DNA from: an uncultured Candidatus Saccharibacteria bacterium
GTDB taxonomy: Bacteria > Patescibacteriota > Doudnabacteria > UBA920
DNA length: 58,940 nt
Direction of reading: 5' to 3'
Assembly: GCA_964384035.1 (NCBI GenBank)
Contig: CAYLIB010000002.1
Span: forward strand, 101,608-160,547
A program made the translations under genes and the position numbers. This document shows positions 1 to 12,053 of this stretch, piece after piece (the stretch's first letter is position 1; every line of letters begins with the position of its first letter). Under the pieces are notes generated by a model. The model was given only the letters and a program-made list of their open reading frames with translations. It made no database searches and was not told where the DNA came from.

Positions 1-53
1 GCGTTGGTTTGCGGTACCAGAGGTCGCAGGTTCGACTCCTGCCGGGTGCACCA
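1..53 (+). tRNA. 3' portion (about positions 24-76, CCA encoded) of a tRNA-Arg(GCG)-like gene, cut by the window edge (unit A)
   Basis: Anticodon stem ttggt/accag, loop ttGCGgt, variable loop aggtc, T arm gcagg-ttcgact-cctgc, acceptor 3' strand cgggtgc, A73, CCA. The 5' part is outside the window, so intactness is unknown. Confidence 0.5.
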
Positions 54-59
54 CTAAGA

Positions 60-80
60 AACACCTAAGCGGTGTTTTTT
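60..80 (+). terminator. Hairpin plus T-run after unit A
   Basis: aacacc-taagc-ggtgtt followed by tttt. Confidence 0.6.
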
Positions 81-221
81 AGTTTGCTAGCACCAAGGGT
101 GCGAGAAAGGGGAGGCTCCATAAGGGCTTCGCCCGTTGGAGGGGACGACGCTAGTCCCGTTAATAGTCGCGTTGGTTTGCGGTACCAGAGGTCGCAGGTT
201 CGACTCCTGCCGGGTGCACCA
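81..221 (+). ncRNA. tRNA-Arg-like structured RNA, unit B: conserved 78-nt hairpin module fused to a tRNA 3' domain
   Basis: Hairpins P1 90-102 (gcacc-aag-ggtgc), P2 116-141 (ctcca...tggag) and P3 142-158 (gggac-gacgcta-gtccc). These are followed by 169-221, identical to 1-53. No canonical acceptor 5' strand or D arm is present. Confidence 0.5.
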
Positions 222-359
222 CTTCGGGCCAATCAGCCCAAGCTTTGCTTCAGATTTTCGATGCAGAAAATCTTGCGCGACGCTTTGGCTGTTGTTCCTC
301 CTCCCAAATTGCTTAACCTCCGCACGGCTTCGGCCCAAGTAATTTGGGAACCCTAAATA

Positions 360-379
360 AACACCGAAAGGTGTTTTTT
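360..379 (+). terminator. Hairpin plus T-run ending unit B
   Basis: aacacc-gaaa-ggtgtt followed by tttt; GNRA loop. Confidence 0.6.
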
Positions 380-478
380 AGTTTCCTAGCACCAAGGGTG
401 CGAGAAGGGGAAGCTTCATAAGGGCTTCGCCCGTTGAAGGGGGCGACGCTAGCCCCATATATAGCGAAGGTGTTTTTT
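380..478 (+). repeat. Unit C: truncated copy of the hairpin module, lacking the tRNA-like domain
   Basis: 380-455 aligns to 81-158 with a few substitutions. After ...atagcg it joins directly to aaggtgtttttt, the 3' half of the terminator hairpin. Confidence 0.55.
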
Positions 479-760
479 AGTTTCCTAGCACCAAGGGTGC
501 GAGAAGGGGAAGCTTCATAAGGGCTTCGCCCGTTGAAGGGGTGCTCTTGAAGGGATCAGGCTTCGCCTGGCCCTGCTCAAGTCGGCGACGCAAGTCCCAT
601 TATAGTCGCGTTGGTTTGCGGTACCAGAGTTCGCAGGTTAAGCGCGAAGGATCCGGCTTAAAAGCGAGTTCTTATGTAAGCAAGCAGGCTTTGCCTGTTG
701 CTGTAATAAGAGCGCTCCCTCTGCCGGTCCTGCTCGTGTCGACTCCTGCCGGATGCACCA
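479..760 (+). ncRNA. Unit D: hairpin module plus tRNA-Arg-like 3' domain with two extra structured insertions
   Basis: 479-541 matches the module. An extra hairpin lies at 546-581 within the 542-585 insert. 608-639 plus 740-760 reproduce the tRNA-like domain, interrupted in the T loop by about 100 nt (640-739). The 3' end is ccggatgcacca. Confidence 0.45.
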
Positions 761-765
761 TAAAA

Positions 766-800
766 AATAATACCCCTTATGCAAGGTGTATTATTTTTTT
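766..800 (+). terminator. Intrinsic terminator after unit D
   Basis: aataatacccctt-atgc-aaggtgtattatt (one mismatch) followed by ttttt. Confidence 0.65.
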
Positions 801-887: not shown

Positions 888-1679
888 TTAATCGGTTTTT
901 GCAGTCTTTGCATTCAAGCGGGCGCGGTATTCGGCGCTAGTGCGGGTCTGTTTCTTCAGTAGCCCGTCGTAGTGGTCAAGATATTCAATTACTTGCGCCT
1001 TGGTTACGTCACCATCTTCAAGCTGTTCAAATAGCTTTTTCATTGTCATGGCATTATAACCCGCAAGTGATCTGAACTTCAAGGTGACAGTCTGATTAAT
1101 TCCAGCTACCCCATTTTCTTTCTGTTTTTTCCTGTTACCACCTAGAGCCTGTTGGAGTTTTTTAATATCGACTCCGAATTGCTCTGCGGCCTGCTTAACA
1201 GTAAAGCTTTGGTTGGTTACCGCATTGCTGGCTTTAATGAGTGCTTGTCTGGCCTGTTTGGATCTCACGGTCGTAATGTACTTCCGAGTCATCCCTGGGG
1301 GTAGACCTAAAAGCTCAGCAATTCTTTTTACAGATTCCCCTCGATTAATCAAAAGGCTAACAGTATGTTCTGTATCCTGTGGGGTCGGAGGGAGTGATCC
1401 ACCCATGTTGGAGCGATAAGCTCGTGAAATCAAATCCGCTTCATCTTGAAGGTCAACTACCATAGCCGGGATCTGTTTCCGGTTTAGTAGTTCATAGGCT
1501 TCTATTCTATGTCTACCATCTATGATTATCCGATCTTTGGTTATCTCGATCGGTGGTAGTTCCATTCCGTTCTCAAGTAGTTCTGCCAGGTAAAGCGCAT
1601 GGTCTTCGTTAAGCTCCTGTCTAACAAAGAGATTCTTTTGCAGGGTTACAATATCAAACAATTCCGGTCTCTTTCTCAT
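888..1679 (-). CDS. ParB-like nuclease domain protein with C-terminal helical/HTH-like region
   Basis: N-terminal ParB/Srx-type motif IIIDGRHRIEAY. GC is higher than the backbone (28/60 in line 1201-1260). A hairpin plus T-run on the minus strand lies at 866-884. Confidence 0.7.
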   Translation of the reverse strand: MRKRPELFDIVTLQKNLFVRQELNEDHALYLAELLENGMELPPIEITKDRIIIDGRHRIEAYELLNRKQIPAMVVDLQDEADLISRAYRSNMGGSLPPTPQDTEHTVSLLINRGESVKRIAELLGLPPGMTRKYITTVRSKQARQALIKASNAVTNQSFTVKQAAEQFGVDIKKLQQALGGNRKKQKENGVAGINQTVTLKFRSLAGYNAMTMKKLFEQLEDGDVTKAQVIEYLDHYDGLLKKQTRTSAEYRARLNAKTAKTD

Positions 1680-1681
1680 TG

Positions 1682-2668
1682 CTATTTGCTCCTATTTTCT
1701 TGAAAATCATCGGTTGGGGACGTATACCTTGCGAGTAAGGATCTCCAACCAGCTCTTTTCTTGACCAATTCACTCAGTACAACATACATTCCTGGTTCAG
1801 GGTAAGTGCGTTCTTTCCATACTTCTCCCGAAAGAGAAAACGTAATCGTACCGAGTTCCTCAGACCTTGTTACCGCATAAGGTCCATGCTTGCCTCTTGG
1901 AATTATTTTCTCGACGATTGCCTGGTAACTTGGATTTTCGCCTATTTCTATCCTCCTTTCTTCGGCTATCAAAAGAAGTAATCGCAAATTTTTTGAATAC
2001 CGAATTAAGTCTAGGGTTATCTCATTAGGTATTCGCTTTAGTTCCCTTTCGGTTAAAAAAGCAAACCCGCTTTTCTCTAGTAAAGGTAGGATAGAACTCA
2101 AGAGTGGATTCCGGATTTCTGGAATTGGTTTTTCTTTACCCAGCTTAAGTTGCTCTGTTTTAAGTGGTTTGTCTGAACCAACATTCACAAAACAGGAATC
2201 GCGTAATGCTTGTTTTTGAATTTCAAGTTCTTCCCTATATTGTTTCCATGTATCTCGAATTATTTCGTGTCTCTCCTCGCTTATTCCTAACTGGCCGTTT
2301 AAGGCTTTGTATAGAGTAGAAGTGCTGGAGTACCTGAGTATCTCGAGTGCTTGGTCTGGGCTAATGACCGAATAGCCCAGCAACTCTACAAAATTTCTTC
2401 TGCCAAGTTGCATCCTTTCGAGTTCAATGATCTTATAACCAAGCATGTCCATATAGCAGATGATCTTGAAGAGATCACCTCCTGTAGGTGGAGAGTTATT
2501 TAACCACCTGGAGACAGTGGCAAGAGACACCCTACAAAAGTCTGCGACAGGTTTTTTGGCTTGCCTAGAGCCTTTTAGACCTCTTGGAGCCACCTGATTA
2601 AACCAGTTTGCGAGATGTTCAAGACACTCGTCATAGTGACCGCGCATTATTTCCGCAGTTTGTTGCAA
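1682..2668 (-). CDS. Hypothetical DNA-binding (HTH) protein
   Basis: HTH-like segment ADFCRVSLATVSRWLNN. It ends 2 nt upstream of the ParB-like gene start, so they are probably co-transcribed. Confidence 0.6.
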   Translation of the reverse strand: MQQTAEIMRGHYDECLEHLANWFNQVAPRGLKGSRQAKKPVADFCRVSLATVSRWLNNSPPTGGDLFKIICYMDMLGYKIIELERMQLGRRNFVELLGYSVISPDQALEILRYSSTSTLYKALNGQLGISEERHEIIRDTWKQYREELEIQKQALRDSCFVNVGSDKPLKTEQLKLGKEKPIPEIRNPLLSSILPLLEKSGFAFLTERELKRIPNEITLDLIRYSKNLRLLLLIAEERRIEIGENPSYQAIVEKIIPRGKHGPYAVTRSEELGTITFSLSGEVWKERTYPEPGMYVVLSELVKKRAGWRSLLARYTSPTDDFQENRSK

Positions 2669-2915
2669 ATTGATCCTCCTTTCTGAAACAGTCCCGAAGG
2701 GCAGAAATACCCGGCATACCCGGGCTAATCATAGTACCAATACCATAAGACTAGTCAACTTTGTTATGGTGTAGAATGATTTTAGTATTTGTATTTATTC
2801 GTCTTGTAGATTTTAATAAAAGTACAAAAAATTCCAGAGCGTTTCAAGCACGTAACTGCTAAAGTAAGATTTATAGTGAAGTTAATCGAAAAAAAGTAAA
2901 TACCCAATAGCTGGG

Positions 2916-3884
2916 TTATTTTTTTCTATTATGAAATCTTTTGTGGACTTCTCGAAGCTGAGTGTTTGTTATGTGTGTATAAATCTGTGTCGTGGTTATA
3001 GACGAGTGGCCCAATAATGTCTGTACGCTCCTAATATCTGCTCCATTTTGTAATAGGTCTGTAGCAAAACTATGTCTTAGGGTATGGGGTGATACTTTAT
3101 GCATGACACCCGCTAGCATGGCATATTTATGTACTACGCGTTGTACAGTTCTAGCCGTAAGTCCATTTTTCTTTCCACTCATTGCTTCCATTTGTTTGGT
3201 CACACTTTCACCTATTTGGCTATGAGCAAGAAATAACGATGGGTGGTTATCTTGTCTTTTTTTAAAATATTTTTCTAGAGCCTCTATGGCTTCCCCGGAG
3301 AAGAAAGTCAATCTAAGCTTGTCTCCTTTTCCTCTCACGGTAAATTCTCCAGTTTTAAAATTTATCATACTCTTCTTGAGGGATACTAGCTCCGATACAC
3401 GAACGCCGCTTGAAAACAAACATAGAAGTAACGCCTTATCCCTAAGTCTCAAAATTTCCTTAGGTTCTTCGTCTACCGCATTTACAATTCTTTCCAACTC
3501 CTCATTAGTTAACACAGAAACTTCTCTGCTTGGATTTTTTGCTAACTCAATTTTTTCTGGCGATAGCGTTTTAAAGTCACGCTTTATGGCATATTTTAAA
3601 AACGCCCTTACTGCAATAGTGTGATAATTCTGGGTAATTAGTTTTAATCTTTTCCCATTGTTGTCTTCAAATCGGTTGAGGAACAGTCTAAACGATCTTA
3701 TTAAATCGGCAGTGATATCACTCATTCTATTTGCCCCCTGGGCTTCCGAAAAACTTGCGAAGCGGGCTAGATAGTGATTGTAGTTATCAATTGTAAGAAC
3801 ACTGTGATTTTTTTCAATCTCACAATACTCCAGAAAATCTAAAATTAGTTTTCGTATCTCACTCTTTGTTTTAGTCTCATTCAT
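2916..3884 (-). CDS. Tyrosine recombinase, XerC/XerD/integrase family
   Basis: Catalytic signature GVRVSEL (Arg), HTLRHSFAT (H-x-x-R) and LGHSSITTTQIYTH (His/Tyr). An N-terminal SAM-like core-binding domain is present. Confidence 0.85.
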   Translation of the reverse strand: MNETKTKSEIRKLILDFLEYCEIEKNHSVLTIDNYNHYLARFASFSEAQGANRMSDITADLIRSFRLFLNRFEDNNGKRLKLITQNYHTIAVRAFLKYAIKRDFKTLSPEKIELAKNPSREVSVLTNEELERIVNAVDEEPKEILRLRDKALLLCLFSSGVRVSELVSLKKSMINFKTGEFTVRGKGDKLRLTFFSGEAIEALEKYFKKRQDNHPSLFLAHSQIGESVTKQMEAMSGKKNGLTARTVQRVVHKYAMLAGVMHKVSPHTLRHSFATDLLQNGADIRSVQTLLGHSSITTTQIYTHITNTQLREVHKRFHNRKK

Positions 3885-3907
3885 ACCAATAGTATAGTAT
3901 AGATTAC

Positions 3908-4711
3908 ATGCGCATACTTTGTATCTCTAGTAAAACTTCATACGGAGCCAAAAGGCTCACAGAGGAAGCAAAAAAGCTTGGGTTGGTTTTTCGTATACAT
4001 TCGCCTCGAGAGGTAGCGCTTAAAAAAGGTTTAGAGAAAAAATTCGACTTGTTATATGTCCGCCAAGCCTATCCAAATTTTCCTAGTGTTATAGGGCTTG
4101 CGAAAAAATTCAAAAAATTAGGAAAAACTGTTGTGGATTCTGAATGGACAGACGCAAATCTAGATGTATCTAAAACAGTTATGTACAAAAAGTTGGAGGA
4201 GGCTGGTCTACCTATACCAGAGACCAATAGTTTATCAGTTCAAGAGTGTAAGTATCCTATAATAGTAAAATGGAATTATGGATTCGGGGGTAAGCATGTT
4301 TGGCTAGTGAGGAGTAAGGCATCGTTAGAAAGAATTTTAAAGATATACCCCAGGAAAGAGTTATTAGCTCAAGAATTTATCGCGTCAGAATATGAATACA
4401 AAGTGGTTGTTATTGGATACAAAGCCCTTCCGTTCGTTGTTCGTTATAAGATAGACAAGTTCCGTCTTACAGCTGATCTAAATAAATTTAAAATATTAAA
4501 AGGCCAAGAGGCTGAGAGCTTACTGTTGCTAGCCGAACAGGCAAGTCGAGTTGTCGGCAGAGCCTTATCTAAGGTAGATATTATAGATAGTTCCGAAAGC
4601 GCCAAAATACTTGAAGTTAATAGAAGTCCAGGACTAGAACCAATAGAGCAGGCGAGTGGTGTAAATATTTTTAAAAGTTTTGTTGAATATTTATCTAGTC
4701 AAGCCGAGTAG
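3908..4711 (+). CDS. ATP-grasp family protein (RimK-like)
   Basis: Motifs YPIIVKWNYGFGGKHVWLV, EYKVVVIG and KVDIID...ILEVNRSPG, typical of RimK-type ATP-grasp ligases. Confidence 0.6.
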   Translation: MRILCISSKTSYGAKRLTEEAKKLGLVFRIHSPREVALKKGLEKKFDLLYVRQAYPNFPSVIGLAKKFKKLGKTVVDSEWTDANLDVSKTVMYKKLEEAGLPIPETNSLSVQECKYPIIVKWNYGFGGKHVWLVRSKASLERILKIYPRKELLAQEFIASEYEYKVVVIGYKALPFVVRYKIDKFRLTADLNKFKILKGQEAESLLLLAEQASRVVGRALSKVDIIDSSESAKILEVNRSPGLEPIEQASGVNIFKSFVEYLSSQAE

Positions 4712-10760: not shown

Positions 10761-12053
10761 ATGATTGAGAAAATAGTCTCTCTTTGTAAGCGCCGAGGCT
10801 TTGTATTTCCTGGTAGTGATATTTACGGGGGCTTAAGCAATTCCTGGGACTACGGCCCTCTTGGGGTCGAGTTAAAAAACAACATAAAAAAACTCTGGTG
10901 GAAACGTTTCGTTCAAACTAGGGAAGATATAGTAGGTATAGACGCTGCTTTGGTAATGAATCCAAAAGTCTGGGAAGCAAGTGGACACTTAGCCACTTTT
11001 TCTGACCCGCTTGTTGAATGTAAGAAATGTCATTCACGATATCGTGCAGATCAAATGCCAGAAAAGTGTGAATCCTGTGGTGGTAAAGACTTCACAGAAG
11101 CAAAGCAATTTAACTTAATGTTCAAAACGTTTATAGGTCCTGCAGAGGAGGCAGCAAATGTTGCCTACTTCCGTCCAGAAACCGCGCAGGCAATGTTTAC
11201 CAATTTTAAGAATGTTCTAGACACAGCCAGAAAAAGAATTCCTTTTGGTATAGCGCAAATAGGTCCTGCTTTCAGAAACGAGATTACTCCGGGTAACTTT
11301 ATATTCAGAACTCGCGAATTCGAGCAAATGGAAATTGAATATTTCATTGCTCCTCCAAAAACAGACGAGGATTGGAACGAATACTTCGAACAGTGGAGAG
11401 GGAGTATGATCTCCTGGATGAAAGACGACCTAGGTTTCAATATGTCTCATATTCATGAACTTGAGGTACCGGCAGAAGACCGCGCTCATTATAGTAAGAG
11501 AACTATAGATTTCGAATACGAATTTCCCTTCGGTATTAAAGAGTTGTATGGTTTGGCCTACCGAACCGATTTCGATTTGAAAAATCACATAAAGGCCAGC
11601 GGACAAGACCTCTCTTATAGAGACCCAGAAACAAACGAAGTATATGTCCCGCACGTCATAGAACCAACATGGGGTGTAAACAGAACAATGCTCGCGCTTC
11701 TCTGTGAACACTACGACGATAGCGATCCAAGTCATATAATTCTCCACTTACCACCAAAACTCGCGCCATATCAAGTCGCTGTTTTTCCTTTGCTCAAAAA
11801 CAAACCAGAGTTAGTTGCAAAGGCTCGTGAAGTATTTGCAAAACTCCAAGAAAATTTCAGTGTCGCATGGGATGATCGCGGAAATGTTGGTAAGAGGTAC
11901 TTCAGTCAAGATGAAATAGGAACACCTTTCGGTATAACCATAGACTTCGACACCCTAGAAAATAATACCGTAACGGTAAGAGACCGAGACACCGCACAGC
12001 AAGAACGTATAGAAATAGATAAATTACAAAGCTACTTAATTTCTAAAATGTAA
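10761..12053 (+). CDS. glyQS: Glycine--tRNA ligase (dimeric GlyQS type)
   Basis: MIEKIVSLCKRRGFVFPGSDIYGGL...WDYGPLG is the usual N-terminus of this family. The ORF track starts at 10674, adding 29 unusual residues, so the true start is uncertain. Confidence 0.9.
   Translation: MIEKIVSLCKRRGFVFPGSDIYGGLSNSWDYGPLGVELKNNIKKLWWKRFVQTREDIVGIDAALVMNPKVWEASGHLATFSDPLVECKKCHSRYRADQMPEKCESCGGKDFTEAKQFNLMFKTFIGPAEEAANVAYFRPETAQAMFTNFKNVLDTARKRIPFGIAQIGPAFRNEITPGNFIFRTREFEQMEIEYFIAPPKTDEDWNEYFEQWRGSMISWMKDDLGFNMSHIHELEVPAEDRAHYSKRTIDFEYEFPFGIKELYGLAYRTDFDLKNHIKASGQDLSYRDPETNEVYVPHVIEPTWGVNRTMLALLCEHYDDSDPSHIILHLPPKLAPYQVAVFPLLKNKPELVAKAREVFAKLQENFSVAWDDRGNVGKRYFSQDEIGTPFGITIDFDTLENNTVTVRDRDTAQQERIEIDKLQSYLISKM

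Follow-up and report, generated by a model that had tools for sequence, protein, structure and literature searches.

A structured three-hairpin module among displaced tRNA-Arg 3' fragments in a rearranged array of a Patescibacteria chromosome

The first 800 nucleotides of a 58,940-nt stretch of DNA (the window) from an uncultured Candidatus Saccharibacteria bacterium (Patescibacteriota; GenBank assembly GCA_964384035.1, contig CAYLIB010000002.1, positions 101,608 to 160,547) hold a tandem array in which pieces of a tRNA-Arg gene alternate with conserved hairpins. We have moderate confidence that this array consists of a tRNA-Arg(GCG) gene, displaced 3' fragments of that gene of the attachment-site (att) type, and a separate, spreading structured module, which were amplified and rearranged together. 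The repeats themselves are real and far beyond chance. The repeat unit is about 300 nt long and comprises a 55-nt tRNA block, a trailer termed X (224-379) and the module of about 82 nt; the periodicity of the array is ~299 nt. The order in the window is tRNA, T, B, block, X, C, D, block, where T is a short terminator segment and B, C and D are copies of the module. The features are as follows.

1..53, plus strand: 3' part (positions ~24-76) of tRNA-Arg(GCG) (Rfam tRNA model 33.5 bits; full tRNA called by ARAGORN in loci L001 and L005)
59..80, plus strand: intrinsic terminator-like hairpin AAACACC-TAAGC-GGTGTTT with a T-run, segment T (sequence; comparison by eye with the end of X, 352-379)
87..168, plus strand: module B (covariance model R1 104.6 bits, R2 103.9 bits; pair counts)
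169..223, plus strand: exact 55-nt copy of the tRNA-Arg(GCG) 3' part plus CT, without acceptor 5' strand or D arm
224..379, plus strand: trailer X (inverted repeats; terminator scan; fold of 81-379, z = -3.06)
386..466, plus strand: module C (R1 99.4 bits; alignments A1, A2 and A4)
485..607, plus strand: module D with a 43-nt hairpin insertion inside P3 (R1 68.9 bits; 75-nt repeat; fold of 479-800, z = -4.9)
608..760, plus strand: decayed tRNA 3' copy, its T-loop split by an insertion of ~100 nt (repeat matches; fold)
762..799, plus strand: 17-bp hairpin between an A-run and a T-run, closing the array (inverted repeat, 94% complementary)

An earlier reading made from the letters and their open reading frames (ORFs), here the sequence-only reading, had recognised a 53-nt tRNA-like segment three times, the third time split. 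This was borne out, and the exact repeat reaches even 55 nt (1-55 equals 169-223, 100% identity), with the third copy lying in two pieces (608-639 and 739-760). The 22-nt tRNA 3' end has three matches in the window, none past 760, against 0 expected from window shuffles. The conserved three-hairpin module on the 5' side of the units was also confirmed, with three occurrences in the array (87-168, 386-466 and, with its 43-nt insertion, 485-607). Modules C and D share a stretch of 75 nt at 100% identity (repeats 368-442 and 467-541), and the junction from C to D corresponds to a unit minus the tRNA block and most of X. The statement that each unit ends in a hairpin plus T-run held for some units and failed for C, which has no tRNA part and is followed by only the 3' half of the terminator hairpin (466-479).

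Trailer X contains a long imperfect hairpin (234-291), the tract CCTCCTCCC (297-305), a hairpin around a C(UUCG)G loop (302-349) and a terminator (359-379). Terminator hairpins with T-runs occupy 59-80 and 359-379, the second of which was also picked up by the terminator scan. Segment T (56-80) equals X minus its first ~130 nt, and its hairpin at 59-80 is a shortened form of the final 28 nt of X. The insertion in the T-loop of the third tRNA copy (640-738) can form a hairpin with the apex CAGGCTTTGCCTG. The idea that the unit D insertions are copies of a mobile hairpin was rejected, as no other copy occurs in any fetched locus. Element 762-799 resembles a bidirectional terminator, and no sigma-70-like promoter was found in 1-1000. 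A 27-nt inverted repeat (741-767/795-821, 78% complementary) relates the 3' end of the last tRNA copy to the sequence past the 762-799 terminator. Once the A/T runs are set aside, 14 of 20 positions match, a borderline value against chance.

The tRNA-Arg(GCG) gene and its 3' fragments

Positions 1-53 of the window match the Rfam tRNA model from its position 23 to its end (33.5 bits, flagged as 5'-truncated), which agrees with the earlier assignment of the segment to tRNA positions ~24-76 with the anticodon GCG. The block shared with copy 2 reaches 55, that is, CCA plus CT. Public assemblies were searched with the exact product of a neighbouring gene, and one locus retrieved in this way, L001 (JGI 3300006899), is the same sequence. 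In L001, GCACCCGTAGCTCAGTTGGATAGA stands directly upstream of window position 1, where the 5' 24 nt of the tRNA gene lie, and ARAGORN calls a 77-nt tRNA-Arg(GCG) at 11627-11703; a full tRNA is called also at L005 1524-1600. Because the full tRNA is called across the window edge in L001, the first copy is a canonical tRNA gene cut by the window start. A full cloverleaf with acceptor 5' strand and D arm, scoring at least 29 bits with Rfam RF00005, was found for copy 1 only. The observation that none of the visible copies has an acceptor 5' strand or a D arm is right for copies 2 and 3; copy 1 has its 5' half just upstream of the window. Farther upstream in L001 are a tRNA-Arg(TCT) and a gene for an RluB-like pseudouridine synthase.

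The array differs between lineages. The window type is identical in three JGI samples. A second type is found in L005, L166, L167 and L169 and reads tRNA, X, B, block, X, C', C', C' (truncated); it includes a near-identical locus in a metagenome-assembled genome labelled Candidatus Saccharibacteria (L005/L166). In L005, X takes the place of T after the gene and is present twice (98% identity). The C/C' repeats measure 99 nt. No array is present in L021, a relative at greater distance (RluB 77% identical), where a plain tRNA-Arg(GCG) is accompanied by a terminator. The sequence-only reading had named beforehand what would indicate att scars, namely a full tRNA-Arg immediately upstream together with unexpressed units that relatives lack; the full tRNA was found there, and L021 has no array. 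Synteny through the RluB-like gene was tried as a guide and dropped because its conservation is poor; L019 and L021 differ, and L018 breaks off within the tRNA.

CGY codons are probably read by tRNA-Arg(GCG) in this lineage (L001 11627-11703, L005 1524-1600, L021 834-910, L018 1-46), whereas the usual bacterial gene carries ACG (inosine). This gene is paired with tRNA-Arg(TCT) in L001, L005 and L021.

In copies 2 and 3 the sequence begins 3 nt ahead of the anticodon stem and extends 2 nt beyond CCA. Copy 3 carries two substitutions, including CGGGTGC to CGGATGC. Both fragments stand in direct orientation downstream, on the 3' side, of the intact tRNA gene. Examined by the Islander criteria for genomic islands, the locus shows an intact tRNA gene (tDNA) with cognate fragments of the same orientation on its 3' side, fragments that run from a known crossover sublocation (the anticodon loop class) to the 3' end of the gene, and a site that is empty (L021) or rearranged (L005) in relatives. 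The anticodon-centred att class accounts for 2083 of the 3919 Islander islands, and tandem arrays are known (PMC4383910). Fragments of tRNA 3' ends are pervasive as attR sites (PMC9897764). As in islands and prophages with tDNA att fragments, an intact gene is followed by direct 3' copies that extend from the anticodon arm to slightly beyond the gene, decay is more advanced in the farther copy, and the copy number differs among lineages. On these features of the sequence, displaced or duplicated 3' gene fragments are a better fit for the tRNA-like pieces than domains of a new tRNA-like RNA. The fragments should therefore not be annotated as tRNAs or as a new class of RNA.

The three-hairpin module, its covariation and its contexts

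Module B comprises helices P1 (90-94/98-102), P2 (116-120/137-141), an apical P2b (124-127/131-134) and P3 (142-146/154-158), together with a G-rich linker (103-115), a P3 loop GACGCTA and the tail GTTAATAGTC. The helices measure 5 bp (P1), 5 bp (P2), 4 bp (P2b) and 5 bp (P3, with a GACGYNA loop), and a GGGGAGG tract is conserved and exposed. Module C has CTTCA/TGAAG in P2 and GGGGC/GCCCC in P3. Module D equals C through P2 and then carries the hairpin insertion of 43 nt (542-584, apex CAGGCTTCGCCTG).

Five distinct copies of the module were aligned with MAFFT and not fitted to a model (alignment A4). All 19 pairs are formed in 100% of the cells of this alignment (n = 5 sequences). Seven of the 19 pairs changed on both sides, with at least one such pair in each helix; 0 of 500 shuffles reach that, and slid controls give 0-1. 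Compensatory counts in the model-fitted alignment are similar. The variants are GCACC/GGTGC and, in a phage copy, GCCCC/GGGGC for P1; CTCCA/TGGAG, CTTCA/TGAAG and CTCAC/GTGAG for P2; GGGC/GCCC and TCAGC/GCTGA for P2b; and GGGAC/GTCCC and GGGGC/GCCCC for P3. The phage copy joins P2 and P2b in one helix of 10 bp that contains tandem G·U pairs. The P2 and P3 changes that had been pointed out before are thus real in the alignments, and compensatory changes in independent copies, the mark of a structured RNA family, are present here in only 5 sequences. As far as the sequences can tell, these changes do indicate selection for the hairpins of the module as an independent element and not as part of a tRNA-like chimera; the earlier conclusion of selection on RNA structure holds for the former and not for the latter.

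The sense strand is more stable than the antisense strand by 0.8 to 9.5 kcal/mol in all six copies. In all three contexts in which we found it the module is on the sense strand, i.e. it runs along local transcription, which favours a structure at the RNA level. The bases just before the tRNA block belong to the module, because the phage copy too ends in TATAGTC, as do B and D; the atagtc before the tRNA copies is therefore not a relic of a D arm. The D-arm relic idea (CGCTAGTCCCGTTAATAGTC compared with CGTAGCTCAGTTGGATAGA) was accordingly discarded, since P3 and TATAGTC belong to the module in L008 and L048 as well. A pseudoknot between a 5' CUAGC and GCUAG of the P3 loop was also rejected, not being conserved in C', L008 and L048. 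Five of the six GGCTTYGCC motifs of the window lie in the array (125-133, 423-431, 522-530, 559-567 and 687-695), against 0.8 matches expected per window from shuffles; these five motifs form the apices of small hairpins, including both unit D insertions.

The module is absent from Rfam. Pattern scans and covariance model R1 revealed it in two further contexts. In another Patescibacterium (L008/L029) one module lies in the 5' untranslated region of dnaA, without a tRNA piece, downstream of DnaA boxes and a conserved promoter, with 6 nt between the module end and the dnaA ATG; the 5.1-kb L029 holds one copy. The dnaA leaders of relatives (L022-L024; DnaA 52-56% identical) have no module even with filters off, and we rejected the idea of a conserved dnaA leader. 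A full-length module (R1 69 bits, R2 83.5 bits) was found on the viral contig L048, which encodes a lambda-type terminase and portal and a protease–capsid fusion. There it occupies 1103-1184, within the linker of the protease–capsid ORF and in its reading frame. The 79 related phage loci contain no module, so that it is not a conserved part of phage protease–capsid genes.

Other scans brought little more. The scan of GTDB-representative genomes with the P1...P2b pattern returned L005, which is of the same species group, and a chance match in a Reyranella SDR gene (L006). A metagenome scan with a 19-mer gave L008 as a true match and L009 as a chance one. The third locus, L007, was rejected because a 19-mer of the P1 palindrome is all that it has in common with the module, and this is part of a family of AT-rich repeats. 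Viral scans with three additional patterns and the tRNA block added nothing, and in BLAST searches of phage and plasmid collections the tRNA block alone had matches. Of the viral hits, L025-L028 turned out to be unrelated sites of tRNA-Arg(CCG), and coding look-alikes explain L040 and L042.

Some of these loci have features of their own. On the AT-rich metagenome contig L007, at least 6 copies of the palindrome GCACCWWWGGTGC lie in both orientations in a longer repeat (950-1760); they may be a family of protein-binding sites or a chance overlap. In two independent assemblies dnaA breaks ~570-578 nt in (L008 1-571; L029 4547-5124), and the best 120 of 1,572 homologs of the DnaA N-terminus are all partial proteins; a feature within dnaA that breaks assemblies in these lineages could be the cause, or the search may have produced an artefact. 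In L048 a strong GAGGAG-N6-ATG is found on the minus strand (1195-1215), 12 nt before the module and inside the protease–capsid ORF. By analogy with lambda C/Nu3, this suggests a nested internal start that would yield the scaffold/capsid part separately.

Most probably the module is a structured RNA or hairpin element that spreads horizontally. It may act as RNA, probably as a structure of mRNAs or other transcripts near 5' ends or start codons that affects stability, processing or translation. Its positions by start codons and its exposed GGGGAGG would suit a cis-acting transcript element, and mRNA leader structures such as 5' stabilisers or those of translation-initiation regions likewise adjoin start codons, as the module does in L008 and L048. 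Unlike such leaders, the modules in the window are followed by no ORF, and no Rfam family matches. The idea of a Shine-Dalgarno (SD) sequence with a structured spacer was rejected: it fits L008 only, and SD motifs are rare in the host, where SD-like motifs precede only 4 of 36 long ORFs (counted within 20 nt before the ATG), so that a simple SD role there is unlikely. Many of these ORFs have TATAAT-like boxes a few bases upstream instead, and this pattern suggests widespread leaderless or SD-independent initiation in the host of the window.

Small hairpin elements of comparable kind include repetitive extragenic palindromic (REP) elements and bacterial interspersed mosaic elements, Correia elements, mitochondrial GC clusters and double-hairpin elements. 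Rickettsia palindromic elements (RPEs) resemble the module in being short and GC-rich with hairpins, and in lying between genes, beside an RNA gene and in frame in a protein gene. The module, like REP/RPE-type elements, is found both in frame (L048) and in non-coding sequence (the dnaA leader of L008). It differs from RPEs in not being dispersed in many copies, since it is confined to one locus (87-607) in the 58.9-kb window; in having three or four hairpins in direct order instead of one long palindrome; and in being always in sense orientation and common to distant genomes and a phage.

We propose tentatively, as a possibility well short of an even chance, that the module represents a new class of structured RNA elements with horizontal mobility, shared by Patescibacteria chromosomes and a phage; it would insert or be captured near transcript 5' ends, start codons and the tRNA att core and have a function of its own there. 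That function could be control of translation, processing or stability, or that of a recognition arm of a tiny integrase-less integrative element on the anticodon-arm site of tRNA-Arg. The array itself is of modest interest. The main interest lies in the ~82-nt element, which is apparently undescribed, compact, unusually clean in its covariation for so few copies and present in three unrelated transcribed contexts in bacteria of the candidate phyla radiation and a phage. Regulatory RNAs and mobile DNA of Patescibacteria are poorly known, and the module, if mobile or regulatory, would be among the first such elements described for them.

Origin of the array and rival explanations

Our preferred reading of the array, with its att-type fragments and separate module, implies the following events. 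Downstream of a normal tRNA-Arg(GCG) gene, a non-coding unit of ~300 nt would have undergone amplification and rearrangement. The fragments would be remains of recombination at an att site in the anticodon loop and were then perhaps copied by block-to-block recombination, the copy farthest from the gene being the oldest and decaying. The decayed state of the distal copy fits such serial displacement. The units are taken to be non-autonomous because they have no recombinase of their own; their movement or amplification may have depended on functions acting in trans or on homologous recombination, for which the 55-nt blocks and the modules would each offer partners. The integrase-less intervals of 115 and 386 nt and the repeated X of L005 point to a reshuffled, non-autonomous unit around an att-type core. 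The module would be a separate element that spreads horizontally and whose hairpins selection keeps on the transcribed strand. The canonical tRNA gene, the geometry of the repeats, the covariation, the three contexts of the module and the array variants of the lineages are observed; site-specific integration as the origin, function at the RNA level and mobility are what we infer. Cis-mobilizable, integrase-less elements occur among att-site island systems, and miniature, repeat-bounded non-coding units at a tRNA att core would extend the integrase-less 'accreted' elements down to ~0.1-0.4 kb.

Several observations weigh against this reading. Neither interval, at 115 and 386 nt, is of island size or contains an integrase; the sole recombinase nearby is Xer-like and outside them, which is why the classic island criteria fail. 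The only ORFs in the intervals 56-168 and 224-607 cross the repeat units themselves, and none was taken as a gene. The locus is in these respects unlike att islands, its intervals being short and wholly non-coding, with a conserved structured module abutting the fragments and a trailer that can be identical after the gene and after a fragment (L005). The last point fits tandem duplication or re-integration of a local circle better than it fits a foreign element that integrated, and simple block-to-block events do not account for how the window differs from L005. Integration scars at tRNA-Arg, one of the options of the sequence-only reading, fit the tRNA pieces best, in an unusual, miniature, integrase-less form. 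As for the module, there are only five distinct sequences and their kinship inflates the shuffle statistics; since the sample is small and the sequences are related, the covariation counts as support and not as proof. P1 consists of the same 5 bp as the acceptor end of tRNA-Arg (GCACC/GGTGC) in 4 of 5 copies, an identity that may be a coincidence or the result of local conversion. The phage linker is not longer than in relatives and so gives no sign of an insertion event, and its hypervariability does not allow one to be delimited.

Pure tandem duplication or unequal crossing-over of the tRNA 3' flank, without site-specific recombination and with a resident module copied along, would account for the periodicity of the array and its C/C' repeats, for X after both blocks in L005, for the 100% identity of copies and for intervals without integrase. 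We nevertheless regard it as unlikely. The edges of the copies lie exactly at the boundary of the anticodon arm and just past CCA, matching att cores; slippage gives no reason for these ends, and B and D agree in this junction. Duplication also leaves the module in the dnaA leader and in the phage unexplained.

A quite improbable alternative is that the hairpins act as DNA, either as protein-binding palindromes or as recombination sites folded in single-stranded DNA, for the Xer-like recombinase or the ParB_N-like/HTH cassette described below, the array being a cluster of recombination or partition sites. Genes of both kinds are nearby, P1 is a perfect palindrome, the L008 module adjoins a DnaA-box region, and all stem changes go from Watson-Crick to Watson-Crick pairs except for the two G·U pairs of the phage copy. 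Those tandem G·U pairs themselves tell against DNA sites, as do the invariably more stable sense strand and an orientation that always follows transcription. Covarying stems are not expected of the half-sites of a dimer operator. No module lies beside the homologs of the ParB_N-like cassette in L010-L017, for which reason an association of the two was rejected, and no such cassette was found near the L048 and L008/L029 loci.

Least probable of all is the functional chimeric tRNA-like RNA put forward by the sequence-only reading, in which the module would replace the acceptor 5' strand and D arm, P1 GCACC would alternatively pair with the 3' GGTGC-ACCA end, and the product would serve as a decoy, a primer or a Y-RNA-like mimic. 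The module does directly abut the tRNA block in units B and D, GCACC/GGTGC is the acceptor end, the minimum free energy fold of unit B employs the long-range GCACC/GGTGC helix, and unit D folds well (z = -4.9). The fold of unit B, however, is no better than that of shuffled sequence (z = 0.08), and its centroid retains the local P1 hairpin. In unit D the 3' strand CGGATGC places a C·A mismatch in the proposed acceptor helix without a compensating change, with the local P1 still perfect, and an insertion of ~100 nt interrupts the T-loop. Modules C and C' and the copies in L008 and L048 have no tRNA part, the phage P1 is unrelated to tRNA-Arg, and there is the lack of a promoter.

Searches with RNA models agree with this. 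ARAGORN found no tRNA in 54-800, so that units B and D were not detected. The best Rfam tRNA match beyond copy 1 (148-218) reaches 22.7 bits, below the gathering threshold of 29, with acceptor and D stems mismatched. YrlA (RF02553) gave 21 and 14.4 bits against a gathering threshold of 69, the weak YrlA-like match at 165-285 being the one other point in favour of a chimera. ARAGORN called no tmRNA, and tmRNA_permuted scored 12.2 bits against 47. When the whole window was scanned at gathering thresholds and 1-1000 at E <= 10, tRNA alone rose above threshold; matches to YrlA, permuted tmRNA, HPnc0260 and miRNA families were rejected as far below it. YrlA and tRNA mimics such as tmRNA and viral tRNA-like structures do, like the units here, combine a T arm, an acceptor 3' strand and CCA with non-tRNA helices, but the tRNA part in the array is an exact copy of the neighbouring gene and not a diverged mimic. 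An RNA array of a type III toxin-antitoxin system (ToxI-like, with tandem ~34-45-nt repeats upstream of a same-strand toxin endoribonuclease) was not recognised either: the repeat units here measure 99-299 nt, and the next gene is convergent and ParB_N-like.

Neighbouring genes

The locus is chromosomal (~39% G+C), with RimK-like, rpsO, pnp and tgt genes downstream. Three genes follow the array on the other strand.

888-1679, minus strand: ParB_N-like/HTH protein of 263 aa (Pfam, NCBIfam and PHROGs scans)
1682-2668, minus strand: protein of 321/328 aa (Pfam, NCBIfam and PHROGs scans)
2916..3884, minus strand: XerC/XerD-like tyrosine recombinase (Phage_integrase 140 bits plus SAM-like N-terminal domains)

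The recombinase scores ~231 bits with the NCBIfam XerC/XerD models, below their equivalog cut-offs, and has no paralog in the window. In the sister lineage (L166 3463-4330, L167 and L169) an extra ORF of 211 aa lies between the 321-aa gene and the Xer-like gene, where the window has only a 247-nt gap (2669-2915).

The ParB_N-like/HTH gene and the 321/328-aa gene together look like a small mobile cassette. It has 128 homologs, whose named sources are mostly Patescibacteria; among 119 listed, identity is 42-59%, and many lie on contigs of ~2.26-2.29 kb. A search for repeats flanking the cassette in the window gave only weak AT-rich matches. The 321/328-aa protein is split into proteins of ~250 and ~90 aa in other genomes. 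In L010 the cassette (1992-4547) lies just after a tRNA-Leu(CAA) and a LAGLIDADG-like ORF, and in L012 (4833-6904) it is flanked by an 18-nt direct repeat, the copies of which are 2054 nt apart.

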